Sequence record: OR539216.1
Direction: 5' to 3' (one strand)
Length of the DNA stretch: 41,822 nt
Source of the DNA: Escherichia phage vB-Eco-KMB41
Part shown: positions 8,321 to 26,072 of the stretch, piece after piece
Layout of the letters: the number at the start of each line of letters is the position of its first letter
How positions within the stretch are numbered: position 1 is the stretch's first letter
The notes under the pieces: generated by a model
Told to the model about the DNA's origin: nothing
What the model saw: the letters and a program-made list of their open reading frames with translations, nothing else
The model's database searches: none
Position numbers and translations under genes: made by a program

Positions 8321-10360
8321 ATGTTAATGACATTGGAAAAACAGATCGAGGCACTCGACCGGGACGCCATACTCCGCGCCCTCGGAGACATGCCTGTTAC
8401 ACCATACGATCACCAGTTCGTAGCATATGAGGCTTGCGCGGAGGCCATCCGTCGCTATCCTGGCCCGGTCATTGTGGACGCCGCCGTGAGTGCGGGTAAA
8501 ACCATCATGATCTCCATGCTGGCCCGCCGAATCAGGGATATGGGATTCCCCGCCATGATCCTGTCCCGTCAGGGGGAGATCATCGATCAGGACTTCGAGG
8601 AGTTGCGGAACTTCGGCGTAAACTCCTCGATCTACTGCGCCAGCCTGGGACGCAAGTCGGCACACTTCCCGATCGTCGTCGGCTCCGAGGGTACAGTGAT
8701 CGGAGGACTCCGCCCAGGTCAGGCCCTCGCCCATTACGCGCCGCTGTTCCTGCTGATCGATGAATGCCATCACGTCAACATTGAGGACCTGATCCGCTCA
8801 CAGGAGCGCATAGTCCCGGAGTACCTGCGCGACGATAAGGGGGAGATCATCCTTGACGGCTTCGGGGATCCGACCGTTATCGGAGAGCATAAGGGCGAGA
8901 CATACGAGGAGATGGTCGAGGCGGGCCGCGCCAGCTATACGATCATTATCCGCACGTTGCAGCAACGCGCCCGCGAGGTGTACGGGAAGGAACTCCGCAT
9001 TATCGGCTACACCGGGACGCCATACCGTGGCGTAGAGTCGATCATCCAGCCAGACCTCGAACAGCCCGGATTCTGGCGTAAAAAGGTCTGCGAGATCTCG
9101 ACGGAATACCTCGTAAGCGTCGGCGCTGTCGTTCCGACTCACTTCGGCCTGTCCAATCTCCACTATAACCTCGACCAGTGGCGATCGTCCGGCGAGGATG
9201 GCGTGAAGGAGTTCACGGACGCCGAAATGGACGCCATGCAAAAGGCGATCCTCAAAGAGAAAAAACTCACTCACGAGATCATGGCGGAGGTCTACGCCAT
9301 CGCACAGCACAGGAACGGCGTATTAGTGACGTGTGCGGGCGTGAGACACTGCAAACAGGCGGCGGAGGCCCTTCCCCCTGGTACGCCTTACGCCATCATC
9401 ACGGACGACACGACGGGCAAGAAGCGCATGGACATTTTGCGCCGCGCCAATACCGGGGAGATCAAGTTCATATTCCAGGTTAACGCCCTAACGACTGGCG
9501 TTAACGTCCCGTTCTGGGACACGTCGGTGATCCTGCGGAAGATAGGCTCCCTCACGCTCCTAACCCAGCTTTTAGGCCGTGGGATGCGAATCCTTAAGCC
9601 GTTCCATATCGCCGCCGGGGTGACGAAAGAGGATCACCTGGTGCTCGACTATGCCGGGACGCTGGACGAACTCGGATCCCTGTATTTCTCTCCGCTGCTG
9701 GAGGCATATCAGCACAGCGCCGACGAGAGCAAGGGGGAATTAGAGTTAGACTGTCCGAAGTGTCGCAAGGCGGGCCACCCTACGCTAAACGGCAAACACG
9801 CGCGACGCTGCCGCTACGTGGATCCAGACACTGGCGAACGCTGCGAACACTTTTTCCAGTTCATCACCTGCGACGACTGGAAGGACGCCAGCGGGCGGAA
9901 AGTGGTCCAGAAGGGATGCGGCGCACAAAACGACATCGTAGCGCGGATCTGTCGCTGCTGCGGGAACTCACTCGTAGATCCGAACAAGAACTTAAGCCGG
10001 ACGACCTACTCGCGGGACGACTACTACAACGTGAGGGACTTCCGCATGGAATTAGCGCGAGGGACTGGGGGGATCGCCTTCCGGTACGAACTGGAGAAGG
10101 ACGGGGACCAGTTTGTGGCGTGGCAAGTATTCTGGCCCGGTAGCGATAGCCCACAGGCGAAAAAGGAATGGCTCCATAATGGCATCCTTAAGCACGTACT
10201 GGACGGCAAGAAGCGGGCGGACATTAAGAAGCTACGGACGCCCCAGGAGGTCCTCGCGTATGCGCCTTACTTCATGGCTCCACTGAAAGTTACCCACCGG
10301 AAGATCGGCAAGGGTAAAGACGTTATATCAAACAAAATCTTTATGAATGAGGGTTTCTAA
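8321..10360 (+). CDS. superfamily-2 DNA helicase (DEAH-type) with C-terminal Cys-rich zinc-finger domain
   Basis: Walker A SAGKT, DEAH-like LLIDECHH, helicase C-terminal motifs (TGVNVP, LLGRGMR); C-terminal CPKC...CRCC clusters. Confidence 0.85.
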   Translation: MLMTLEKQIEALDRDAILRALGDMPVTPYDHQFVAYEACAEAIRRYPGPVIVDAAVSAGKTIMISMLARRIRDMGFPAMILSRQGEIIDQDFEELRNFGVNSSIYCASLGRKSAHFPIVVGSEGTVIGGLRPGQALAHYAPLFLLIDECHHVNIEDLIRSQERIVPEYLRDDKGEIILDGFGDPTVIGEHKGETYEEMVEAGRASYTIIIRTLQQRAREVYGKELRIIGYTGTPYRGVESIIQPDLEQPGFWRKKVCEISTEYLVSVGAVVPTHFGLSNLHYNLDQWRSSGEDGVKEFTDAEMDAMQKAILKEKKLTHEIMAEVYAIAQHRNGVLVTCAGVRHCKQAAEALPPGTPYAIITDDTTGKKRMDILRRANTGEIKFIFQVNALTTGVNVPFWDTSVILRKIGSLTLLTQLLGRGMRILKPFHIAAGVTKEDHLVLDYAGTLDELGSLYFSPLLEAYQHSADESKGELELDCPKCRKAGHPTLNGKHARRCRYVDPDTGERCEHFFQFITCDDWKDASGRKVVQKGCGAQNDIVARICRCCGNSLVDPNKNLSRTTYSRDDYYNVRDFRMELARGTGGIAFRYELEKDGDQFVAWQVFWPGSDSPQAKKEWLHNGILKHVLDGKKRADIKKLRTPQEVLAYAPYFMAPLKVTHRKIGKGKDVISNKIFMNEGF

Positions 10361-10361
10361 C

Positions 10362-10829
10362 ATGGCGATATTGAATAAAAAGACTGATTTCTGGCGCGAG
10401 TTTTACCCGGACCACATTCCGAGCTATTGCCCCCACGAGGACGTCGAACAGCAAAACATGGCGAGCAATATCCGGGAGATCTACGGCGATCCTCTGACTG
10501 ATCCCGACGCGCTTCTGGCGTTCCACCCAGTGAACGAGAGCGGGGCCAGTGGAGATCCTCGCTACGGGGCGAAGTTAAACGCGCTCGGACGGCTCGCCGG
10601 GATCTCTGACTGGGTTTTCCTGGAGCCTCGCGGCGGCTATGGCTTCGCGCTGATCGAGTTGAAACGGAATACCCGGAGCAAGTCCCGACTGAGCGCCGAC
10701 CAGAAAGCGGTCTTAGAACGGGCGCGGGCGCGTGGTGGCTGGACTGCTGTCGCGTGGGGCTGCGAGGCTGGTCTGGCTGCACTGGAGTATTATCTTAAAT
10801 TACCTGTTGCAAACATCACGAAAGAATGA
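10362..10829 (+). CDS. VRR-NUC domain nuclease
   Basis: Conserved D...ELK...LS..Q core (SDWVFLEP...ALIELKRNT...LSADQKAV) characteristic of VRR-NUC; the ORF track start at 10347 would overlap the helicase. Confidence 0.75.
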   Translation: MAILNKKTDFWREFYPDHIPSYCPHEDVEQQNMASNIREIYGDPLTDPDALLAFHPVNESGASGDPRYGAKLNALGRLAGISDWVFLEPRGGYGFALIELKRNTRSKSRLSADQKAVLERARARGGWTAVAWGCEAGLAALEYYLKLPVANITKE

Positions 10830-10835
10830 TTTAAT

Positions 10836-10865
10836 CCCTCTCACATTCACCAGTGAGAGGGTTTT
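10836..10865 (+). terminator. Hairpin CCCTCTCAC-loop-GTGAGAGGG + TTTT (weak terminator or attenuator)
   Basis: Perfect 9-bp stem between the VRR-NUC stop and the exonuclease start. Confidence 0.45.
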
Positions 10866-10868
10866 ACA

Positions 10869-11909
10869 ATGCAAACGAACGGCCTGATCCCGGCGCTTCC
10901 ATCCTACGACATAGGGGCTTCGATGTTTATCGACGCCAGGAGCGCCGACCAGCTTACTAACGAGCAATACCACGAGGACGAGATCTACATTACCGGGTCA
11001 AGCCTCTGGACCATCTACAGCAAATGTCCCGCCGCGTGGCGCTTCCAGAAGGCACAGGAAGCCGCAACAAAAAAACTGAATGCCGCCCAGAAGCCGCTCA
11101 CGTTCGGGACGACTTCCCACACGATGTTACTTGAGCCGGAGCGCTTCGAACGCGAGTTTATGCGTCTGCCTAACCCGGACGACTTCCCCGGCCTGATCAC
11201 CTCAATGTCCGGCATGACGTCATGGTTAAAGGAGCGCGGTCAGAAGGGCTACTCCAATAAAACCGCCGCCGAACTGATCGAGATGTGTCGCGCCATTCAG
11301 GCCCCGGACGAGGTTCTCCACATCTGGCACGAGATCGAGGCGAAGGCCATCGCGGAGGCGAACGGTCGCGAGATCGTCCCGGCGAAGGACTGGGACCGCG
11401 TTCACTCAATGCGTGACGTTCTGCTGGTAAACCACAATTACCGCCGGATCATCGAAACGGGCCTCCCGGAGTTGTCGCTGTTCTGCGTGATCGATGGCGT
11501 CCCGGTTAAGGTCCGTCTGGACCGCGTGACCGATACCGGGGAGATCATCGACTACAAGACCACGCAAAGCGCGGAGCCGGAGAAGTTCGGGCGTCTGGCT
11601 CACGATTTGGGCTACTGGTGCAAAATGGCGTTACAGCATGACTGTTTTAAGCTGGCCTACCAGCAGGATCCGGCGGGGACTAAATTACTCGTTCAGGAAA
11701 AAGACGAGCCGTGGCTGGCCCTCATGAATCGCCTTACGCCGGAGCAAATTATGATCGGTCGTATGCAATACAAGACGGCGCTCCAGGTCCTCAAACACTG
11801 CCGCGAGCGCGACGTCTGGCCCGCTTATGCAAACGGTCAGGAGGAGATCCCGCTGTCCACTCCGGCCTATTTACAACAACGTTACAAAGAATATTTTAAG
11901 GAGATTTGA
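10869..11909 (+). CDS. PD-(D/E)xK recombination exonuclease (RecB/Cas4-like fold)
   Basis: Nuclease core with D...(E/D)xK pattern (LDRVTDTGEIIDYKTTQ) and position directly upstream of Erf. Confidence 0.7.
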   Translation: MQTNGLIPALPSYDIGASMFIDARSADQLTNEQYHEDEIYITGSSLWTIYSKCPAAWRFQKAQEAATKKLNAAQKPLTFGTTSHTMLLEPERFEREFMRLPNPDDFPGLITSMSGMTSWLKERGQKGYSNKTAAELIEMCRAIQAPDEVLHIWHEIEAKAIAEANGREIVPAKDWDRVHSMRDVLLVNHNYRRIIETGLPELSLFCVIDGVPVKVRLDRVTDTGEIIDYKTTQSAEPEKFGRLAHDLGYWCKMALQHDCFKLAYQQDPAGTKLLVQEKDEPWLALMNRLTPEQIMIGRMQYKTALQVLKHCRERDVWPAYANGQEEIPLSTPAYLQQRYKEYFKEI

Positions 11910-11911
11910 TC

Positions 11912-12634
11912 ATGGTATTTTCTGAATCACGCGCCGCAATTGTCCCGGCAATGGTTAAGGCCCGAATCGCTATGATGTCGGAAGCCAAAAAGAACACGCA
12001 AAATAATCACCTTAATAACTGGTATGCGGATCTTGGATCGTTCCTGTCCACAATCCGCCCGGCGCTGGAGTCGAACGGTCTGATCGTCGTTCAGACGCCT
12101 ATGCCCTGCACTGAAAAAAATAACATGCTCGTGTTACCGCTGGAGACGATGGTCCTCCACGAGTCCGGCGAGTTCATGACCGCCGTTATGGAAATGCCTC
12201 TCTCGTTCGGCAAGGGCGCGGCGGCTCACTCTGTCGGCTCGGCGATCACCTATGCCCGACGCTATCACCTGGCGGCGCTGTTCGGCATCACCCAGGCAGA
12301 CGACGACGGCAACGCGACGAAGAAAACCGCCCGCCAGTGGATCGCAGATCTCGAAGGGATCGAGGACGTGGCGAAGCTGGACGAAGCCGTGGGGAAAGTG
12401 GTCCACGCGCTGGCAGACGATCAGGCATCCGTGAAGGTTGTCCGCGACTGGCATATTTCCCGCAAAGCGGCATTGCGAGCCAGCGAGGCGAAAGGCTTTA
12501 GCCCTGCCTCGGTTGTTAAACAGAAAAAAGGCGCTGATAATGCCCCGGCAAAAGAACAGCCCGCCGCCCCGGTAGAGCCTCAAAAGGACGAAGCCCCGGC
12601 GGCGGAAGATAAACCGAATATTGAGGACTTTTAA
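11912..12634 (+). CDS. erf: Erf-family single-strand annealing protein
   Basis: Erf signature region ([15 protein letters not shown]) and acidic/Pro-rich C-terminal tail; ATG at 11912 preceded by AAGGAGA. Confidence 0.8.
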
Positions 12635-12636
12635 GC

Positions 12637-13185
12637 ATGGCATCACGCGGCGTTAACAAGGTGATTCTGGTTGGCAATTTGGGCCAGGATCCCGAAGTGC
12701 GTTATATGCCGTCGGGTGGAGCGGTGGCGAACATCACGATCGCCACCTCTGAATCCTGGCGCGACAAGCAAACGGGCGAACAGAAAGAACAGACGGAATG
12801 GCATCGCGTCGTTCTGTTCGGGAAGCTGGCGGAGGTCGCCGGGGAGTACCTGAAAAAAGGCTCACAGGTTTACATTGAGGGCCAGCTTAGGACGCGCAAG
12901 TGGACGGACCAAAGCGGCGCGGAGAAATACACGACTGAGGTCGTCGTGAACGTCGGCGGCACTATGCAAATGCTCGGCGGGAAGCGTGAAGGTGGTCAGT
13001 CTGGGGGGAACGGACCTACCCACTCCGGCGGCGGTGGCAATTCTCGCAATTCTCCGGGCCGTGGCGCGACGAACTCGCAAAATCCGGGCAAGGGTAGCGG
13101 GTCAGGGTCTGCGCCTCGTGGTGGCTCTCCTGCTGCGTCTGGTGGCGAGCCTCCCCTGGACTTTGACGACGACATACCTTTTTAA
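12637..13185 (+). CDS. ssb: single-stranded DNA-binding protein
   Basis: Canonical OB-fold SSB N-terminus ([41 protein letters not shown]), Gly-rich linker and acidic C-terminal tip DDDIPF. Confidence 0.95.
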
Positions 13186-13192
13186 CAGGTGA

Positions 13193-13206
13193 GGCCCTTC
13201 GGGGCC
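13193..13206 (+). promoter_or_regulatory. Intercistronic GC hairpin with UUCG tetraloop (GGCCC-TTCG-GGGCC), second copy
   Basis: Identical hairpin to 407..422, again followed by CCCAGGAGC SD and an ATG (13229). Confidence 0.45.
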
Positions 13207-13228
13207 GATCCTCCCAGGAGCCGACGAG

Positions 13229-13669
13229 ATGAAACAATGCGCCATCTGTCAGACGGTCAAGCCTCTGGAGGACTTCCACAGGAACAAGCGGACGAAGGAC
13301 GGGCGGGATTGCCGTTGTAAGGTCTGCAAGGGGCAAAAGTACCGCGAGTATTACCACGGCGATCCATCCCGGAAGGAGAGGATCATCGCGAACGTTAAGA
13401 CATATCAGGCGGGGCCGGGACGCGAGAAGGCGAACGCCACAAAGTCCCACTATCAGGAGCGCCACCCTAAGAAGCGAAAGGCCCATAATCTGGTCCGTAA
13501 TGCTCTGAGGCGCGGAGAACTCCACAGGGGGCCGTGTGAGGTGTGCGGAGCCGACAAGGTAGTGGGCCACCATGACGACTATGATCGCCCGTTAGCGGTC
13601 CGCTGGTTGTGCGAGAGGCATCATAAAGAGTGGCATCTGGTCCACGGTGAAGCGCTTAACCCGGATTGA
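13229..13669 (+). CDS. HNH endonuclease
   Basis: N-terminal CxxC...CxxC zinc finger and C-terminal HNH core (CEVCG...HHDDYDRP...WLCERHHKEWH). Confidence 0.8.
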   Translation: MKQCAICQTVKPLEDFHRNKRTKDGRDCRCKVCKGQKYREYYHGDPSRKERIIANVKTYQAGPGREKANATKSHYQERHPKKRKAHNLVRNALRRGELHRGPCEVCGADKVVGHHDDYDRPLAVRWLCERHHKEWHLVHGEALNPD

Positions 13670-13950: not shown

Positions 13951-13982
13951 CGAATTGTTAAACTCGTATCGAGGTACAAAGA

Positions 13983-14010
13983 GAAGGGGCCAATTAAGGC
14001 CCCTTTTTTT
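13983..14010. terminator. Bidirectional rho-independent terminator (GGGGCC-AATTAA-GGCCCC + T7)
   Basis: Perfect GC stem with T-run on plus side and T-rich tract on minus side, between the convergent HTH and tailspike genes. Confidence 0.8.
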
Positions 14011-16219
14011 ATGCTGGCGTCCTGAATTGGATCGGTTTCGCCGCTGCGAGTTGCGTCCCCGCCGGGGTCGCCGTCACGATAGCGTCCGCGATATCGATCG
14101 TTACCGGGGCCGTGGAGTTGCTCGGCGGCGTCTGGTACGGTCCGCGAGTGATGCGGGTCGAGAGGTTCGCGCCACCAGCGCCAGCGCCGGGGATGATGAT
14201 CCTCGTGCCAGGGGAGAGCGGGTTCCCGAACAGCCACGGGCGGGAGGTTTCGTTCGCGATCGGGGTCACGTTACAGATCAGCTTTTTGTCGCCGACTGCG
14301 GTCGCCGCGATCTTGAAATTATCCGTCGCCGGGATGTACGCCCCGGAGGCCGTCACGGTGAAGATCTTCCCATCCTCGCGCACAATCAGATCGCCCGCCA
14401 TAAACTCCTTACCAGTCGGGAACGCGTTACCATCCCACGCTCCGCTCGATCCCTTGTTGATGTAGGTCCGGTTGGAGTTGGTCATGATGGCCCCGATGCC
14501 TCCCGCGATGCCCTGGGGAGGATATGGGGTGGCGATCACGTTGGAGCCGATGCTCTCAATGTCGGAGTAGGAACACTTACTCCACGCCTGATCGCCGTAG
14601 CCGTTCACGTCGATCGCGTTCACGTTGATCATACGGAGGCGAGAGAGGCCACGCGTCACGAAGCCGTCCGAGGTGGTCCCGCCGCTGGAGTCATCGCCGA
14701 CCGCATCGAACGAGCGGCAAGAGATATTCGACATTTCCAGCAGGGACGCCACGCCGAACAGGGAGAGCGTATAACAGTCGATGTTTTCGAATACCATCCG
14801 GTTTTCGAAGCCATTCCCCGCCGCCACGCCAGCGTAAACGCGTCCGTATTTGGTGTGGACGTTACGGACCGTCATATCAAAGCAAGGGTTAGACGGTGCG
14901 CCAGCAGTCACGCCCCACTCCAGCATAACCATGCGGAGAGAGTGGACGTCGGTCGATCCGGTTGCCACTGGCTCGCCGCTCACGCCGTCGATCGTGATGC
15001 GTTTGCAGCCATAACAGACCACTCCCCCCACGGTCAGGCCGGAGCCGACGCCGTAGCCCATATCCGGGTTTACATCGACATTGGTCACGGTACAGTCGCG
15101 CGCGACTTCCAGGTGGACACATTGGCGGCAACGGACGGCGGTCACGTTGGTGATCGTAACGTTCTTCGCGTATTGGCTGTCCGGGATATCCCAGCCATAC
15201 GGGCCTTGTCCGGCGATACCGATCCCGATGCCCCACGAAGGGTTAGCGGAGCCGATGGTGTCCAGTTGGATCCCGTCAATCAAACAGCCTTCATCGTAGT
15301 GCTTCTGGACCACGTTAAGCTCGATCCCGTCGCCGTCCATTTTGTAGAACGAAAGGTTACGATAAACGCCGCGCGTTACTGGCTCCCCGGTCCCCTGCTG
15401 CAAGATGCCGTAAAGGCCATTTTTGAACTCGCACTCCGTGACCTCGATCGTCCCGGTTTTCGGGTTAGCCTGGAGAACAATCGATCCCACTTTGGACGCG
15501 GTAGGCTTGCCGTCAAACAGGCAGTCACGGATCCGCACATCACCGCCCCAGAAGCGAACGCGCAAATTATTGATCGTCGCGCCCTTGAGGATTGAGCCAT
15601 CCAGGAAAAAGTCCGCCGTCCCTTTCCACGTACCGCCCATGATCAGGATGTTCTCGGCGGTCACATTGCCGTCGAGGGTCCCGGTCCAGCCCACCGCGTT
15701 AACCGCGAGTTTCTGGGCCTCTGCCGTGTCAAACATCGTCTGAATCGCTGCGGACACGCTGGTGAATGGCGCTTTACCCACGAACTGGAAAGGCGTCAGC
15801 CAGCCCTGGATCGACTCCTTCACGTTGCCGTAAGTGGTCCCGACGTACTCCCACCCAGTCGGCGAGGTGAGAAGGTTCCACATCTGCACAGGGTCATACT
15901 TGAACAGGTTCGCAAAATAGAACTGCTCGACGTCGTTCCGGTCTAAAACCTTCATGGACGATTCGATCTTGGTGATCAGCTTGACTACTTGACCGTTCCA
16001 GACCGGATAGCCGGAGACGTTGGTCCTGATCGGCTGAGGGATCGGCGTCAGAGTTCCGTCCTCGTCCTCGACAAAGACCTGAGTCTGGTTAGCCGGGTTT
16101 AATGGGTCGGTGTCCTTCACGCCGATATAAATTTTCCCATCCACCAGCGCCGCGAAACGGTCCAGGCGGAGGAAAGGCGTCGAAGGCATACCAATATCAG
16201 CGTATACGTCGCGGGCCAT
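14009..16219 (-). CDS. tailspike protein (P22 gp9-like N-terminal head-binding domain + distinct beta-helix receptor-binding body)
   Basis: N-terminus matches P22 tailspike as recalled (DGKIYIGVKDTDPLNPANQ...YDP); remainder is Gly/Asn/Thr-rich like parallel beta-helix enzymes. Start set at second ATG (GGAGA SD); ORF track start is 16231. Confidence 0.85.
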   Translation of the reverse strand: MARDVYADIGMPSTPFLRLDRFAALVDGKIYIGVKDTDPLNPANQTQVFVEDEDGTLTPIPQPIRTNVSGYPVWNGQVVKLITKIESSMKVLDRNDVEQFYFANLFKYDPVQMWNLLTSPTGWEYVGTTYGNVKESIQGWLTPFQFVGKAPFTSVSAAIQTMFDTAEAQKLAVNAVGWTGTLDGNVTAENILIMGGTWKGTADFFLDGSILKGATINNLRVRFWGGDVRIRDCLFDGKPTASKVGSIVLQANPKTGTIEVTECEFKNGLYGILQQGTGEPVTRGVYRNLSFYKMDGDGIELNVVQKHYDEGCLIDGIQLDTIGSANPSWGIGIGIAGQGPYGWDIPDSQYAKNVTITNVTAVRCRQCVHLEVARDCTVTNVDVNPDMGYGVGSGLTVGGVVCYGCKRITIDGVSGEPVATGSTDVHSLRMVMLEWGVTAGAPSNPCFDMTVRNVHTKYGRVYAGVAAGNGFENRMVFENIDCYTLSLFGVASLLEMSNISCRSFDAVGDDSSGGTTSDGFVTRGLSRLRMINVNAIDVNGYGDQAWSKCSYSDIESIGSNVIATPYPPQGIAGGIGAIMTNSNRTYINKGSSGAWDGNAFPTGKEFMAGDLIVREDGKIFTVTASGAYIPATDNFKIAATAVGDKKLICNVTPIANETSRPWLFGNPLSPGTRIIIPGAGAGGANLSTRITRGPYQTPPSNSTAPVTIDIADAIVTATPAGTQLAAAKPIQFRTPA

Positions 16220-16231
16220 TGTGATCTCCAT

Positions 16232-16258
16232 GAGAAAGGGGGCTTATCGCCCCCGTTG
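16232..16258 (-). promoter_or_regulatory. Intergenic hairpin GGGGGC-loop-GCCCCC upstream of tailspike
   Basis: GC stem-loop between the ejection-protein stop and tailspike start, followed (minus sense) by TTTCTC. Confidence 0.35.
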
Positions 16259-19200
16259 TTATTGTTGCTGCTGCTGTTCGGTTGCTGCCGCCCTGCCACC
16301 TGCGCCGGAAAAGAATCCGACGATCCCGGCTCGGTTAACGGCTGCTTTCTCCTCCGGGCTGAATGCCTCATACAAGGCCCGCCACTCCGGGGAGTTCGCC
16401 GCCGCTTGCTCGGCCTCTCGGACGAACGTCCGGCCCGCTGGGGTCAGCTTCCCGGAACTCTGCGCGGCTGCGGCTTGCATAAGTTTGGAGAAGTCCGGGG
16501 ACGAAAGCAAGTTGTCCGCCAGTACCGAACGAGGCACACGAGCGCCCCGCGCCGCCTGAGCCGCCGACAATGCCGCGTTACCTGCCGGACCTGCCGCCAG
16601 ATAAGCCGCCGTGTGCTTCGCCAGCCAGCCCCCCGCGCCGTACAGCTTGGACAAGACGCCGCCCGCGTTCGGGTCGTCGAAGCGCTTCACGAAGTCGGAG
16701 ATCGATCCGGTCGTGGTGGTAAAGCGTTTCGCCCGGTCGATGCCATTCGCCACGCGGTAGATCTGCATGAGGCGCACACGCTGATCGCGCGGTAGGTGCT
16801 TCATGACATTGCCTAACGTCCCGTTTGCCTGGGCGGTCTTGTACCAGTCCACGAAGCCGGGGATCGCGAAGGTATCGCGGGCGCTACGGTTCCCCAGGGT
16901 CCGCTCCAGCGCGTTAGCCACTACGTCGCCTTTGAGGCTCTCCGGGGTTGCAGCCATCAGGCGGTCCCAGTCCTTCGCGCTGCCGCCTTTCTTGCCCAGG
17001 TTTAAGATCGCGTTCTGCACTTTCCCGGTGATCGAGTCGGTGAGGTTCTTTCCGAGTGCGTCCTGGGCGATCGTCTCCAGATCCTTACGGCGTTTAACGA
17101 GTTGTTTCGCCACGTTCCAGTCGTCCGCCGCGCCGTACTGAGCCGCGACTTTCTCCTGGTCGTCAGTCAGGCGGGCGTAAAGCTGTTTAAGTGCGCCCGT
17201 CTCCTCGTCCTTGAACGGACCAGATTTTTTGTTGAGCGCCTGGCCCACCTGCTTACGGAGCGTGTCGATCCGCGAGTAGGTCGGAATGGTCGCTACGTCC
17301 TGATCCGGGAGGCCCGTCGCCGGGTCCACCTTGCCAGGCTTCGGAGCCATCCAGTCGAGCGCCTTACGTTCTGCGCTGGAGAGATACGCCTCGCCGCCTA
17401 ACTCGTCAGCCTTCGCCGTCAGATAGTCCACGGTGCTGTCCGGCCTTACTTGCGCGTTACGCGGGATCTTCGCCGCGATCGCGTTATAAGCCTTCTCCGC
17501 CTCGTCGCCCAGACCGTCGATCACCGCACGAGTGCGGGCCGTGAACGCCTGATCAATGGTCTGCGCGTTCATGCTTGACATGCTATCGATCAGCTCGTCC
17601 GCCTTCTCGCCTAAGCGGGAGATCCCGTTTAACTGCTGCGTCTCCAGCGCGGAGCCTTTACGGCTCACAAGCTGCTGGATCGTGCTGCGGAAATTCGTGT
17701 CTCGCGCGTAAGCCGCCGGGGTCAGTTGATCCTCCAGCCCCAGATCGCGGGCCGTCTTGATCAGCTTCTTGTCCACGTCCGCCATGTTCGCCAGGTCGAT
17801 CGCGTCGTCAGAAGCGCGGAGGGCCTCCCCGTTCGCGCCCTGGACGTTACGGTCTGGCGTCAGTCGGAACTTGCTCGCGTCACGAGCCACAGCGTCGGAA
17901 ATGCCCGCCTCGGTCGCCTGGGTGGATCGGGTTGCGTCTGCTGCGGCGTCAGCGGCCCCACCTGCGGCCCCCTCCGGCGCTCTGAGCGCGTTCCACAGTT
18001 TACCCGCGCCACCGATAACAGCACGACCGATCGCCTCTCCTGCGGGCGCTAGTGCGATATTCGTCAGCGTCTCCTCCGGGTCGCCTCGACCAGCGGCCAC
18101 CGCGCCGGGGACGGCACGAGCCGCCGGGGCTGCGATCCAGTTCTGGGTCATATCGGCGAGACGGGTCGCGAAGCTGGTCGCGTCCGGCGCTTCACGGACC
18201 AGTCCGAGGAGTTCGGTCGCCGCCTGAGCCTTACGCGGGCCAGGCAGTGGCGCGAGCATATCCCCGATCAGGGTCCCGATCTGCGCGTATTTGTCCGTGG
18301 GAGCCAGACCAGGGATCCCCCCAGGCGTGATAGTCGGCGCTTGGGTGTTCTGGTCCACCAGCCCGACGCCCTTCCCGGCATCGGTCACGGCTTGGGAGAT
18401 CATGTTCGCCAGCGAGATCGGCGTGTTCAGCAGGTCGATCCCCGTCTGAGCCACGCCGCGAGCGCCCTGATCCAGTGAATGGAGGACGGTCTGGCCTAAC
18501 TGTTCCCAGTTTCGGGCGGCTTCTTCGTTTGGATCGGTTTGTCCGGGCTGATTAGCTCCGCTCTGGACTCCGTTACTGTTCGGCGCTGCCGCCCCTTGTG
18601 CGCCATCAGATCCCGCTTGATTAGGTGCATTGCCAGCGGCGACGGCTGCGACTTGTTGATCGGCTCCGGGTGCTCCGGCTCCGTCTGCGGCTGCTGCTGG
18701 GGGTTGGTAGTCCCCGAACTGGTCGAAAACATTACCGCCAGCGCTCGGAGATCGTGCGCTGGTTGCGTATTGAGTAGGTTCGCCGCTGCCATCGCTGCCA
18801 GCGCCTCGCCCAGTCCATTGATTAAACCGATCATCCACATATTGACGCCCCTCCGGGCCAGGGGTTGCCTGTCCCGCCAGTTGTTTGTCTACATTGCCGG
18901 GGCCGTCATGGTAAGCCTGGAGGGCGGTCCCCCAGTCTCCATAGCGCTGATACATGCGGGAAAGGTACTGCGCCCCCGCGTCCGCTTGCATTGCTGGATC
19001 CTGCGCCAGCGCGTCCGGGTCGTAGCCCATTTCGCGGGCCGTGTCCGGCATCACTTGCGTAAGTCCCATTGCGCCTTTTTTCGATCGCGCCGCTGGGTTG
19101 CCGCTGGACTCTTTTCCCATTAACTGGGTCATGAGTCCGGCGGGGATCCCCCATTTAGCCCCGGCGCTCTCTACCACATCAGCATAACCCGAACCGGACG

Positions 19201-19285
19201 ATCCGGGCTGAGTTGGGACCTGATTAGGGAGCGCCGTCGCATTTTCCGGCATATTCTGATCGAACTGGTCAAAGATGTTAGCCAT
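16259..19285 (-). CDS. ejection/internal virion protein with N-terminal lytic transglycosylase (SLT) domain (1008 aa)
   Basis: SLT signature near N-terminus (LMGKESSGNPAA...GAMGLTQVMPDTA...AQYLSRMYQRYGDW), long Gly/Ala/Gln-rich linker, large C-terminal body; occupies the position of P22 gp16. Confidence 0.75.
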   Translation of the reverse strand: MANIFDQFDQNMPENATALPNQVPTQPGSSGSGYADVVESAGAKWGIPAGLMTQLMGKESSGNPAARSKKGAMGLTQVMPDTAREMGYDPDALAQDPAMQADAGAQYLSRMYQRYGDWGTALQAYHDGPGNVDKQLAGQATPGPEGRQYVDDRFNQWTGRGAGSDGSGEPTQYATSARSPSAGGNVFDQFGDYQPPAAAADGAGAPGADQQVAAVAAGNAPNQAGSDGAQGAAAPNSNGVQSGANQPGQTDPNEEAARNWEQLGQTVLHSLDQGARGVAQTGIDLLNTPISLANMISQAVTDAGKGVGLVDQNTQAPTITPGGIPGLAPTDKYAQIGTLIGDMLAPLPGPRKAQAATELLGLVREAPDATSFATRLADMTQNWIAAPAARAVPGAVAAGRGDPEETLTNIALAPAGEAIGRAVIGGAGKLWNALRAPEGAAGGAADAAADATRSTQATEAGISDAVARDASKFRLTPDRNVQGANGEALRASDDAIDLANMADVDKKLIKTARDLGLEDQLTPAAYARDTNFRSTIQQLVSRKGSALETQQLNGISRLGEKADELIDSMSSMNAQTIDQAFTARTRAVIDGLGDEAEKAYNAIAAKIPRNAQVRPDSTVDYLTAKADELGGEAYLSSAERKALDWMAPKPGKVDPATGLPDQDVATIPTYSRIDTLRKQVGQALNKKSGPFKDEETGALKQLYARLTDDQEKVAAQYGAADDWNVAKQLVKRRKDLETIAQDALGKNLTDSITGKVQNAILNLGKKGGSAKDWDRLMAATPESLKGDVVANALERTLGNRSARDTFAIPGFVDWYKTAQANGTLGNVMKHLPRDQRVRLMQIYRVANGIDRAKRFTTTTGSISDFVKRFDDPNAGGVLSKLYGAGGWLAKHTAAYLAAGPAGNAALSAAQAARGARVPRSVLADNLLSSPDFSKLMQAAAAQSSGKLTPAGRTFVREAEQAAANSPEWRALYEAFSPEEKAAVNRAGIVGFFSGAGGRAAATEQQQQQ

Positions 19286-20610
19286 TAAAGCCCCTCCGGT
19301 AAGAATCCGTATTTTGCTTTAAATTGCTCTTTGACGCTAGGCGTAGGATTTTGCATCAGGTAATTAAGCGCCGCCTGGGCGTTCTGCTGCGGGATCCCCC
19401 CAGCGGTCAGTTGCCCGATTGCCTCCTGTTTCGCGTCGTCCAGTTGGATCTCGCGACGGTAGGACTCCACGCGCCCGCCCTGGTTCTTCTCCAGCGCCGC
19501 CTTGCCCTTCTCCAGACTGGTGACATAACGCTGGATCACGGCCTTAAGCTGGTCCTCGCTCATTTGTCCGGGGTTGGCGTTCAGCAGGGCATTAGCCGCC
19601 GCCTCGCCTTCCTTCTCCGTGACCGAACCAGTCCCGCGTAAGGACTCCATCCCGGCGAGTCGCGCCTGGCTCTTAAGCTGGTCCAGGGTCTGGACGATCT
19701 CCGCCGTGTTATCGCCGCCACCAGTCGCCGCCGACCAGAAGCGGTTTCCGTAGCCGTTGATCCCGGTAACGTAGCCCAGGTCCTTACGCGCTAAAAGCTG
19801 TTTAGCCAGATCCAGCGACGTGTCGATCGGGGCCAGCGTCTTGTCGAACGTCTGGAGAAAATCGCGTTTCGTGTTGAGGCTGTCGGCCTGTAGCTTCGCT
19901 TGCTGCTGGGCGTACTTGCCGCGCTCAATGTCGTTTTTCTCCTGCGCGATCCGGGTGTTCAGTCGCTCGTTTTGTAGCCCGATGTAACGGAGGTTACGGT
20001 CCGCCGCCTGGCTGGCTGCGTTAAGGTCCTGCCCCCTGATCGTGGTCGTGTTCTTCATGACCTCTTTCGCGTAGTCCAGTTGGTCCTTGCTGGTGTTGCT
20101 GGCAAGGTGGAGCGCCTGGACGGAACGGCGGAACGCGTCCGGGTCGTTCTGCGCGGCCTGTAGTGCTGCGTTCGGGTCAATCCCCATAGCCTGGAGCGCC
20201 GGGGCGTTCTGCTGGACGAACTGCGCCGCCGCCTCTGGTCCTTGCGCGATCGCGACGTCCGCCTGGCTGGCTAACTGGGATCCCTGCTGCTGGCGAATCT
20301 GGTCCGTCAGTCCGAGACGTTTCTGGAGCGCCTCGATCTGGTTCGGGTACTTGTACGCCAGCGCCTGGATCGCGGAAGGGTCGCCCGCTGCCGCTTGCCA
20401 GTCTTTATTGAACTGGGCCATTTGCTCCTGATTCACCTGCGCGGCTTTCATCGCCATTCCCTGCTGTCGGTTCTGGATCTGCTGCGCGGTGTTGTTCTGG
20501 ATCAGGCCGATATTCTGGAGCGTGTTCGTCCCCGCCGCCTGGATGTTCTGGAGGTTGTTCCACAGGTCGCCCGGATCCGCGCCGCCGCCACCGCCTAATA
20601 ATTGAGCCAT
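19285..20610 (-). CDS. ejection protein (P22 gp20-like, positional)
   Basis: 441-aa Gln/Ala-rich protein between gp7-like and gp16-like genes, with ATGA-type overlaps. Confidence 0.65.
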   Translation of the reverse strand: MAQLLGGGGGADPGDLWNNLQNIQAAGTNTLQNIGLIQNNTAQQIQNRQQGMAMKAAQVNQEQMAQFNKDWQAAAGDPSAIQALAYKYPNQIEALQKRLGLTDQIRQQQGSQLASQADVAIAQGPEAAAQFVQQNAPALQAMGIDPNAALQAAQNDPDAFRRSVQALHLASNTSKDQLDYAKEVMKNTTTIRGQDLNAASQAADRNLRYIGLQNERLNTRIAQEKNDIERGKYAQQQAKLQADSLNTKRDFLQTFDKTLAPIDTSLDLAKQLLARKDLGYVTGINGYGNRFWSAATGGGDNTAEIVQTLDQLKSQARLAGMESLRGTGSVTEKEGEAAANALLNANPGQMSEDQLKAVIQRYVTSLEKGKAALEKNQGGRVESYRREIQLDDAKQEAIGQLTAGGIPQQNAQAALNYLMQNPTPSVKEQFKAKYGFLPEGL

Positions 20611-21272
20611 TAGATCATACCTCCGAACATGCCGCCGAACATGGACGTAAAGCTGTTCGCGTCCTGCGCCGCGCCTTGTGACATTTGATTATTAGCCGTT
20701 GCTGCGGTGTTCCACGGCAAGGCCGCTTTTTGGCCCAGGATCTGGCCCTTCTGTCCTGCGAGAGCGGTCAGGGCGTTAGTCGTCCCGGTAGCCGCTGCGG
20801 ACTGAGCGCCAGCGCCAGATAAGCCGACGTTAGTCAGGCCCAGAAGCTGGTTAAACATATCTTGCTGCTGCGCTTGCATCGCGTTCAGGTAGTTCTGGCC
20901 CAGCGTAGGCGCGATCGCCGCGAGTCCGTTCTGGGTAGCCGTCGATCCGAGGCCCCCGGTCGCTTCCGCGCTGGCGAGTTGCGTCCGACGCGCCGCGTCC
21001 TCGTTCATGGCGAACTCTTTCCCGCCGTAGTAGTCGGAAAGAAGCTGCTCACGATCGATCGGCTGGCCCGCGATCGCCGTCAGTTGTGGGAGTGCATTCG
21101 TCCCGGCCTCACGGAAGGGGCTTAACCATTCCGCCTGTTGCGCCTGTAGCTCGCGCTGATAGTCCATCTGTTTATCGGTGGCTTTCTGCTGCTGCTTAAG
21201 GGCCTTATTCGTCCCGATGCCGCCTAAAACGGATGATACAGCGCCGCCGATCCCGCTAATTGCTCCGCCCAT
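20610..21272 (-). CDS. ejection protein (P22 gp7-like)
   Basis: Gly-rich N-terminus, PFREAGT motif as recalled in P22 gp7, Gln/Ala-rich body, C-terminal FGGMFGGM. Confidence 0.7.
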   Translation of the reverse strand: MGGAISGIGGAVSSVLGGIGTNKALKQQQKATDKQMDYQRELQAQQAEWLSPFREAGTNALPQLTAIAGQPIDREQLLSDYYGGKEFAMNEDAARRTQLASAEATGGLGSTATQNGLAAIAPTLGQNYLNAMQAQQQDMFNQLLGLTNVGLSGAGAQSAAATGTTNALTALAGQKGQILGQKAALPWNTAATANNQMSQGAAQDANSFTSMFGGMFGGMI

Positions 21273-21715
21273 TTGGTCCTCTCCTCAAAAAAATTACTTC
21301 CGCCATGTTACCGTCCGCCAATTGTACAAGCTGCGGGGCGCTTTCAACAAATCCCACCTTTCGGACCACGTTCCGCGCGTGTCGGTGTGACATGAGAACA
21401 GGGACGCGGATCGCATAATGGCCCCAGTGAGCCAGAAAAGCCTCGCAAGCCTCGCGTGACCGTCTGCGTCTGGGTGGATCCATCGCCATATGACCATCGA
21501 TCCCGCCTTCGTCGTTTGCCATGATGGCGAACACGCAACGCCATATGACCATCGATCCCGCCTTCGTCGTTTGCCATGATGGCGAACACGCAACATTTTT
21601 CCCACAGAAAATATTTTGCCTCGACGTGGCGAGGCCATTCCGGCAAGCCCCAGGCGTGGAGGAGGTCCACGCCGGAGTCTGGCACGAGTTCGATCATCTC
21701 TCCATAGTCCATCAT
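21256..21715 (-). pseudogene. virion gene at the P22 gene-14 position, frameshifted by an exact 55-bp tandem duplication
   Basis: Three overlapping minus-strand ORFs in different frames; peptide CVFAIMANDEGGIDGHMA is encoded twice, once per repeat copy; removing one copy would give a single ~134-aa ORF. Confidence 0.55.
21484..21593. repeat. Exact tandem direct repeat, 2 x 55 bp (GCCATATGACCATCGATCCCGCCTTCGTCGTTTGCCATGATGGCGAACACGCAAC)
   Basis: Two identical adjacent copies read directly in the sequence; 55 is not a multiple of 3. Confidence 0.85.
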
Positions 21716-24761: not shown

Positions 24762-24790
24762 ATAAAAAAAGGGGAGCCAATGGCTCCCCC
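24762..24790 (-). terminator. Rho-independent terminator after coat gene (minus sense: GGGGGAGCC-loop-GGCTCCCC + T7)
   Basis: Long GC stem followed by TTTTTTT on the minus strand just downstream of the coat stop. Confidence 0.75.
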
Positions 24791-24812
24791 TTCTGCGAGT
24801 GCTTTCGCGCTC

Positions 24813-26072
24813 TTACGACTGCTTAGGCAGTACCAGGCCGACATATTCCGGCACGAGGACGGAGGTCCCGTACAGGGTAGTGAATCGGCAAGTGGTCACG
24901 CCCGCGATGTGATCGAACGCGTAGGACATGATCAGCGTCGCGCCCTGTTTGGTGGTGGCTCGCATTACCTGCGGACCTTGACCAGTAGGGAACGCCAGAT
25001 TACCGAACATCAGTTCCACGGAGCCGTCGGCCCACAGGAGGTTAGCGTTAGCCGCTGCCTTGTTGATCACGGTCAGCGCTGCGCCGGAGGCCGCGTTCGC
25101 GTCCACGTTCGCGTAAGGGCGAGATGGCACGTCGGCATTGTTCGGCGGCAGGATCTGAGGGGTGATCGTGATGTTGTTGCCGGAAACATCCAGGACGCGG
25201 AACACTTGAGGGGTGTCCGTGGTGTCCTTGCTGATCATGTGAACCATGTTCACGCCCGCGATGGTGAACGCGTCGCCAGCTTCCAGGCCGTGACCAGCGG
25301 AAACGGAGATGATGCCCTGGCGGTTATCGACCGGGAGATCGTTCGCGTCTTTCGCTACGACTTTGTGAGCCGGAGCGGAGGCCAGCGTGATCGCGCCAGT
25401 CGGGCCAGCGCCCAGTCGTGCGGAGATGTCGGTCTGGTACGAGTCAAAGCCCGCAACGTCCGGGATCTTCGCCTTTTCGTAGGCGGTCTGGGTCAGACCT
25501 GCGGCGTATTGACGTCCGCCCAGTTCTTTAGCCAGATCTTTGTAAGAGAACGCGTTCCAGAAGGAGCGCTTATTCACGCCCTGCGGGATGCCGATCGAGG
25601 TGAACTGAGCGCCCACTTGTGCGGCTGCGTCCCACAGATCGAGGCCCAGGGTCCCCTGAGAGTTATCGCCTACCGGGATCACATGGGTAGCGTAACGCGC
25701 TGCGGTAGCGATCAGGTCGGAGTCGATCTTCGCTGCTACACGCTGGCCCGCTGCTCGGCCCATTTCTTTCTTGTGCTCCGGGTCGCGCATCTCGCGAGCG
25801 TCCAATTTCCACAGGACGTTCTGAGGCTCTTTAAAAGCCGACGGGACGAGACGCTGGACGATATCGGTCCCGGTTTTCCCGGTCAGGTCCAGACCTTCGA
25901 TGATATCCGCGTGATAACGCTGCGGACGGTATTCAACGTCCCCGGCGCGTTGCATCGCGGTATCGCTTGGGCGGTATTTCGCGGCGTTCTGCGATACCAC
26001 GCAAGACGCTTCGAAGCTCTCCACATACTCCTCGAAAGCGATTTCGAGGTCCTTCGCTAACTGGTTAGCCAT
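24813..26072 (-). CDS. major capsid (coat) protein, P22 gp5-like
   Basis: Blocks match P22 coat as recalled (AKYRPSDTAMQR, RPYANVDANAASGAALTVIN, LLWADGSVEL); 419 aa; followed by a strong terminator. Confidence 0.9.
   Translation of the reverse strand: MANQLAKDLEIAFEEYVESFEASCVVSQNAAKYRPSDTAMQRAGDVEYRPQRYHADIIEGLDLTGKTGTDIVQRLVPSAFKEPQNVLWKLDAREMRDPEHKKEMGRAAGQRVAAKIDSDLIATAARYATHVIPVGDNSQGTLGLDLWDAAAQVGAQFTSIGIPQGVNKRSFWNAFSYKDLAKELGGRQYAAGLTQTAYEKAKIPDVAGFDSYQTDISARLGAGPTGAITLASAPAHKVVAKDANDLPVDNRQGIISVSAGHGLEAGDAFTIAGVNMVHMISKDTTDTPQVFRVLDVSGNNITITPQILPPNNADVPSRPYANVDANAASGAALTVINKAAANANLLWADGSVELMFGNLAFPTGQGPQVMRATTKQGATLIMSYAFDHIAGVTTCRFTTLYGTSVLVPEYVGLVLPKQS

Follow-up and report, generated by a model that had tools for sequence, protein, structure and literature searches.

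The 41,822-nucleotide genome sequence of Escherichia phage vB-Eco-KMB41 (OR539216.1; the window hereafter, meaning this whole stretch) raises the question of why the gene at the position of P22 gene 16 encodes a protein of 1008 residues, and what function its additional N-terminal part may have. A reading based on the sequence only had located an open reading frame (ORF) at 16259-19285, without giving a strand, and had proposed an ejection protein with an N-terminal lytic transglycosylase domain, about 400 residues longer than P22 gp16. According to the ORF list and its translation, the coding sequence (16259..19285, 1008 residues plus stop) is a single ORF with an ATG start on the minus strand, while a plus-strand reading of this interval contains stops throughout and was rejected. 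All sequence strings on which the proposal was based are present in the minus-strand translation (MANIFDQFDQN, residues 1-11; GKESSG, 57-62; GLTQVMP, 74-80; AQYLSRMY, 105-112; NVFDQFGDY, 185-193), and with 609 residues for P22 gp16 the excess amounts to 399 residues. We conclude, with a probability of roughly 85%, that the gene encodes a gp16-type internal ejection (pilot) protein of a Murrayvirus podophage with a P22-like virion, to which an active family-1 lytic transglycosylase is fused N-terminally.

In agreement with the proposed N-terminal enzyme, Pfam, PDB, AlphaFold2 (AF2) and Foldseek all identify a lytic transglycosylase domain (SLT, GH23-type) between residues 34 and 160 (18806..19186, minus strand). 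Profile searches and a structure prediction of this region had been suggested as checks, and both support the assignment. The Pfam profile SLT (PF01464) matches residues 38-139 significantly, with an E-value of 2.4e-23 and 82.4 bits compared to a gathering cut-off of 21.3. Searching the PDB by sequence gives E. coli Slt70, MltC and MltE/EmtA, and a profile of 51 homologs additionally retrieves T7 gp16 (7eyb, 7k5c; E 5e-7). Residues 33-160 are predicted by AF2 with confidence (predicted local distance difference test, pLDDT, of 82-97) and superpose on solved lytic transglycosylases. The 50 matches shown from the Foldseek comparison of the AF2 model with the PDB are all lytic transglycosylases with a probability of 1.00; root mean square deviations are 2.7 Å both for Slt70 (1qte) and for T7 gp16 (7eyb_I; 126 columns). 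The weak E-values of these matches (0.02-0.25) are probably due to the use of the whole 1008-residue model as query.

Within this domain, Glu59 in the string GKESSG (codon 19109..19111, minus strand) is the predicted catalytic acid. In the alignments, Glu59-Ser60 is paired with Glu478-Ser479 of Slt70 and with Glu37-Ser38 of T7 gp16; Slt70 Glu478 and T7 gp16 Glu37 are taken by us to be catalytic residues, based on established knowledge and the legend in a review. GLTQV (residues 74-78) pairs with GLMQI of Slt70, and AYHDGPG (residues 124-130) with AYNAGPG, so that the family-1 lytic transglycosylase motifs ES, GLMQ and AYNxG are all matched. Residues Glu59, Gly74, Tyr125, Pro129 and Gly130 are conserved to at least 90% among the 51 homologs. 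In its sequence and its modelled fold, the domain has every feature by which an active family-1 lytic transglycosylase would be recognized.

Most of the protein is of the P22 gp16 type. PHROG 770, a family named 'DNA transfer protein', is matched by residues 139-958 with an E-value of 1.3e-110, and the match spans positions 3-667 of the 668 in the profile; for P22 gp16 the E-value with this family is 2.3e-266. As a direct BLASTP comparison with P22 gp16 only finds residues 264-346 (P22 residues 65-134, 33% identity, E 5e-4), the kinship is real but distant. The closer resemblance to T7 gp16 than to P22 that had been stated holds for the N-terminal module of ~150 residues and does not hold for the other ~850 residues (85%), which are of the P22 gp16 type. 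BLASTP aligns T7 gp16 with residues 5-150 only (26% identity, E 3e-7), and of the T7 gp16 family PHROG 342 only profile positions 12-229 of 1235 are matched (E 5.6e-10). Hence, with the similarity confined to the N-terminal module, the 1008-residue protein is not a member of the T7 gp16 family.

Behind the enzyme domain, five regions can be distinguished, all on the minus strand. Residues 161-262 (18500..18805) form the Gly/Ala/Gln-rich linker that had already been noticed; with 24% Ala, 17% Gly and 11% Gln it is predicted to be disordered (pLDDT below 50), and the alignment shows a conserved QxATSA element besides the second copy of a short motif described below. The conserved gp16 N-region follows at residues 263-350 (18236..18499; GxRGxxQxGxDxLNxP ... 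PTDxYAQxG), which contains the segment aligned with P22 gp16 by BLASTP and is conserved in homologs with and without the SLT domain. Residues 351-499 (17789..18235) are Gly/Ala-rich and weakly hydrophobic, with a low-confidence structure (pLDDT below 50). The C-terminal all-helical domain, residues 500-870 (16676..17788; PHROG 770, PHROG 6704), is the conserved core of the gp16-type family, with pLDDT values mostly between 85 and 95. According to the translation and the AF2 model, the tail (residues 871-1008, 16262..16675) is helical, Ala-rich and ends with QQQQQ; AF2 confidence is low for residues ~877-914 and moderate to good from ~915. For the ~850-residue body, no solved-structure relative emerged: single-sequence and profile searches of the PDB, like the 50 Foldseek matches shown, led to the SLT domain alone. 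The body also gave no match in Pfam or NCBIfam scans, in which the local Pfam copy did not contain PF26808, a family listed for homologs in a larger database.

The genomic position is consistent with the assignment as a gp16-type protein. In Pfam and PHROG scans, the minus-strand operon contains genes for the large terminase, a P22-type portal, the scaffold, a P22-type coat, the gp4 adaptor, gp10 and the tail needle, followed by the ejection genes. It ends with tail needle, gp7-like gene, gp20-like gene, the 1008-residue gene and tailspike, an order equal to the P22 map, so that both gene order and neighbours bear out the claimed gp16 position in a P22-like virion module. The gene is the last of the gp7 - gp20 - gp16 ejection cluster and lies upstream of the tailspike gene. 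The gp7-like protein (220 residues; 20610..21272, minus strand) was assigned by Pfam P22_gp7 (PF25688, E 1.7e-19) and PHROG 598, and the gp20-like protein encoded directly upstream (441 residues; 19285..20610, minus strand) by Pfam Inj_translocase (PF16928, E 3e-13) and PHROG 2534. The ATG of the 1008-residue gene shares one nucleotide with the TAA stop of the gp20-like gene (TAATG), and P22 genes 20 (10069..11484) and 16 (11484..13313) have the identical 1-nucleotide overlap. A Shine-Dalgarno-like GGAGGGG is read directly from the sequence 5' of the ATG (19291..19297, minus strand). The downstream neighbour (14009..16231, minus strand) is a tailspike with a P22 head-binding domain at residues 13-115 (Pfam Head_binding, E 2e-32) and a colanic-acid-degrading body (PHROG 6117, E 1e-238); in relatives it is mislabelled 'colanic acid biosynthesis protein wcaM'. 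The domain identities, catalytic motifs and gene order are established by these comparisons, as is the distribution of the family.

The fusion itself is real but ordinary, as close relatives are already annotated with it and it occurs widely in the family. The 12-kb virion segment shows 92% nucleotide identity to phage ST231 over its full length and 84% to IME_EC2, Lumpael and sortregn, all of the genus Murrayvirus, and the window is essentially a whole Murrayvirus genome. These relatives are high-GC (guanine plus cytosine) coliphages that combine a P22-like virion module with an unrelated replication module. The ST231 ortholog, which is 95% identical, is annotated as 'transglycosylase', likewise those of IME_EC2 and Lumpael, while the orthologs of Sortsne, IME279 and Kc237 are named (putative) 'lytic transglycosylase'; 'DNA transfer protein' is also used among orthologs. 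In the temperate Lederbergvirus Sf101, a true P22-like phage, gp13 ('transglycosylase', 911 residues) occupies the gp16 position and aligns with residues 34-989 at 31% identity. Many prophage proteins of ~790 residues in a large protein database bear the name 'lytic transglycosylase domain-containing protein' or 'DNA transfer protein'; they originate from E. coli, Klebsiella aerogenes, Cronobacter, Serratia and Shimwellia.

A HMMER search with residues 500-1008 gave 831 clusters at 50% identity (E<=1e-3). Among the best 150 representatives of these clusters, 29 (19%) carry an SLT domain, N-terminal in all cases, as scored with a local hidden Markov model built from our own SLT alignment. Nine long homologs without SLT were scanned for other enzyme domains and gave no Pfam match at all. 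The SLT modules are 55-75% identical to that of the window, while the rest of the protein diverges to 13-40% and the C-terminal body to 13-18%, which points to module shuffling, to a stronger constraint on the module, or to both. The practical value is small: a wall-cutting enzyme would be delivered together with the DNA, as the annotations of the relatives already say.

From the sequence and by analogy, we infer that the protein is enzymatically active, located in the virion and ejected. P22 gp16 is internal in the virion and ejected, as described in PMC4992974 and PMC8402733. By homology with P22, the protein would be packaged in the capsid together with the gp7-like and gp20-like proteins, and after tailspike binding and release of the tail needle the three proteins would exit via the tail channel. 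Once in the periplasm, the SLT domain would use Glu59 as catalytic acid to cut glycan strands locally, in analogy to the role described for the SLT domain of T7 gp16 (PMC8954989), and so make an opening in the murein through which the trans-envelope conduit could pass. The disordered Ala/Gly/Gln linker may give the enzyme its reach to the wall, while the gp16 body (residues ~263-1008) may help to build the inner-membrane end of the conduit, as suggested by P22 gp16. P22 gp4 reportedly has murein hydrolase activity (Moak and Molineux, 2004), and as a gp4 homolog is encoded in the window, the virion may therefore contain two wall-active proteins.

Several points weigh against this mechanism. No experiments on the 1008-residue protein or a close ortholog were found in the searchable literature, and the use of a transglycosylase by P22-type ejectosomes is here proposed by analogy. 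P22 gp16 works without an SLT domain, and the domain may therefore be dispensable under many conditions. Residues 162-499 are modelled by AF2 at very low confidence. Moreover, no classical transmembrane helix is predicted in the protein (Kyte-Doolittle maximum 1.09, residues 410-428), which makes the membrane role of the body conjectural. Finally, a review (PMC8954989) generalizes that P22-like phages lack the transglycosylase of T7 gp16; judged by sequence, this is correct for P22 and Sf6, but is contradicted by Sf101, by many prophages and by about one fifth of the representatives.

Alternatively, the SLT-like domain could be catalytically dead and serve only as a structural or peptidoglycan-binding module of the ejection protein. 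Activity is here predicted from the sequence, P22 gp16 functions without the domain, and lytic transglycosylase mutants of T7 gp16 are viable under standard conditions; the domain of T7 gp16 is needed for genome internalization only when the peptidoglycan is highly cross-linked (PMC8954989). However, the catalytic Glu and the family-1 motifs are intact and conserved to at least 90% in the 51 homologs, and an SLT domain that keeps 55-75% identity where the remainder retains 13-40% follows the pattern expected from purifying selection on an enzyme. We therefore consider loss of catalysis improbable. Even less probable is a function as an external, tail-associated lysin instead of an internal, ejected protein. 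The gene adjoins the tailspike gene, and the names of two matched families would fit such a role: PHROG 21143 ('lytic tail fiber protein'), matched by residues 33-640 with an E-value of 3e-60, and PHROG 2013 ('lytic tail protein'), matched by the SLT domain. PHROG 21143, however, merely represents the Sf101-type SLT-gp16 fusion, and the protein matches, over its full length, the family of P22 gp16, which is internal and ejected (PMC4992974, PMC8402733). Furthermore, gp4, gp10, needle and tailspike are all assigned to other genes, and long disordered regions combined with a helical body are typical of ejection proteins, not of fibres.

A murein-cleaving domain could also belong to the phage endolysin, which lyses the cell at the end of infection, and the names of related domains include 'endolysin' (PHROG 669). 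The window, though, contains a separate lysis cassette at 1390-2793, which excludes this role for the 1008-residue protein: on the plus strand, the genes for a holin (1390-1809), an endolysin (1796-2275; PHROG 90, E 1e-54, no Pfam match) and an Rz-like spanin (2272-2793; DUF2514). Together with the location of the gene inside the virion operon and its fusion to an 850-residue ejection-protein body, this makes an endolysin function extremely unlikely. The lysis cassette is compact, its genes overlap, and it is situated far from the virion operon.

The internal repeat that had been noted in the gp16-SLT fusion, NIFDQFDQN near the N-terminus and NVFDQFGDY about 185 residues into the protein, turned out to be a short, conserved twin motif with co-varying copies and not a duplicated domain. 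A pattern scan places copy 1 (NIFDQF) at residues 3-8 (19262..19279) and copy 2 (NVFDQF) at residues 185-190 (18716..18733), both on the minus strand. In the single sequence, the self-match of 9 residues is not above chance, with the same score reached by 92 of 200 shuffles. In contrast, translating the 41.8-kb window in all six frames yields just two instances of the pattern N-x-F-[DAEQ]-[QK]-[FLIMVY], both in the 1008-residue protein, and almost every full-length relative with an SLT domain retains the two copies, even where overall identity has fallen to ~46%. The copies also co-vary by lineage, with the pairs NIFDQF/NIFDQF, NVFDQF/NVFDQF, NFFDQF/NFFDQF, NPFAQF/NPFAQF, NMFAKY/NMFGQY and NMFAEY/NLFAEY. 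The uniqueness of the pattern in the window, its conservation and its co-variation across homologs indicate that the repeat is real as a short motif. It is absent from the gp7-like, gp20-like and needle proteins of the window.

In the KMB41 phage, the SLT cassette sits between the two motif copies. In the Sf101 type, both copies are located behind the SLT domain (DPNNPFAQ[LI]E at 153 and 177), and in the Serratia/Pluralibacter type two GPWEKY-like copies lie ahead of it. Some gp16-type proteins without SLT (P0236, P0253, P0133, P0138, P0221, P0241; L005, 2544-4730) start with two tandem aromatic-acidic peptides, in the forms NVFDQFDD x2, GPWE[RM]F x2 or WWEE x2; as these homologs begin with tandem copies, the SLT domain was apparently inserted between them. 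In P0236, NVFDQFDD is found at residues 3 and 13; its gene is part of a gp10 / gp7-like / 395-residue / gp16 cluster. An N-terminus of the form M-A-x-x-[FW]-x-x-[FYW] is present in 18 of 146 representatives, and the N-terminus of T7 gp16, MDKYDKNVP, aligns with FDQFDQNMP of the 1008-residue protein. In the simplest reading of these sequences, a twin aromatic-acidic peptide recurs at the N-terminus across the gp16-type family, and the SLT cassette was inserted at differing points relative to it.

A further, tentative and rather doubtful idea is that the peptides form a twin docking motif, [N/G]-x-[F/W]-[D/E/A]-[Q/K]-[F/Y], which would bind a common partner, with SLT as a mobile cassette that was inserted independently before, between or after the copies. 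By analogy, the partner could be another protein of the ejectosome (compare the 'molecular tape' of T7 gp16 on gp15); further candidates are a component of the procapsid, which would recruit the protein for packaging, and a periplasmic protein of the host. If the motif had such a function, the enzyme in this phage would be tethered at both ends. The twin motif would provide a mutable handle on the recruitment of ejection proteins to procapsids or on their periplasmic assembly, two poorly understood processes. A description of the motif was not found in the searchable literature, which did not include key subscription papers; the twin motif around the SLT domain is the sole mildly new point of this analysis and may itself be known.

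Some other features were seen around the gene. In the 27-nucleotide gap between its stop and the ATG of the tailspike gene (16238-16254, minus strand), the sequence GGGGGCGATAAGCCCCC forms a perfect GC hairpin of 6 bp with TTTCTC behind it, which could act as an attenuator or RNA-stability element; a stronger terminator-like site is located past the tailspike gene (14005-13984). Two very long plus-strand ORFs, of 546 residues (13955-15595) and 426 residues (24780-26060), lie antisense to the tailspike and coat genes; they probably result from the ~60% GC content and are not genes. At the position of P22 gene 14 (21294-21715, minus strand), two overlapping ORFs of 114 and 123 residues are found. 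Only the first ~70 residues of the 123-residue ORF match PHROG 17333, and the ST231 annotation has a 134-residue protein at this position; the gene model is tentative and may involve a frameshift. Base composition gave no prominent sign of recent acquisition across 13.5-22 kb.

Of the known systems, the orthologs in Murrayvirus and Sortsnevirus (ST231 ORF30, WAV88277; IME_EC2, Lumpael, sortregn, Sortsne, IME279, Kc237) are closest. They have ~1000 residues, the same architecture and the same genome position, and at 69-96% amino acid identity only sequence divergence sets them apart. P22 gp16 shares with the KMB41 protein the family PHROG 770, the gene position, the 1-nucleotide overlap with gene 20 and the conserved N-region, but it has neither an SLT domain nor N-x-F-D-Q-F motifs, and pairwise similarity extends over ~80 residues only.

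Sf101 gp13 and the ~790-residue proteins of P22-like prophages in E. coli, Klebsiella, Cronobacter and Serratia combine an N-terminal SLT domain, a linker with a twin N-x-F-A-Q-[LI] motif and a gp16-type body, and their genes likewise follow homologs of genes 7 and 20. They differ in that SLT begins at residue 1 of Sf101 and both motif copies follow it, instead of one on either side, and many prophage versions differ by a P22-type C-terminal body that is only 13-18% identical. The Sf101 gp16 homolog (L001, 5992-8727) is a three-part mosaic of SLT, a P22 gp16-like segment and a C-terminal body of the window type and not of the P22 type; the segment around residues ~225-330 is almost identical to residues 52-150 of P22 gp16 (L002, 11484-13313).

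T7 gp16, an internal core protein of 1318 residues, likewise carries an N-terminal SLT domain on the largest ejection protein, with a shared fold and a presumed cutting of murein at DNA entry. Its body, however, is of another family, with no similarity detectable past residue ~150-230, and the T7 proteins form an ordered core stack while those of the P22 type are described as diffuse (PMC8954989). Wall-degrading modules have been swapped between ejection proteins, as discussed in reviews including the latter. Gp35 of K1E/K1-5 and the tape measure proteins of TM4 and T5 similarly place a wall-degrading module on a protein extruded into the envelope, but use other carriers and in several cases other enzyme classes.

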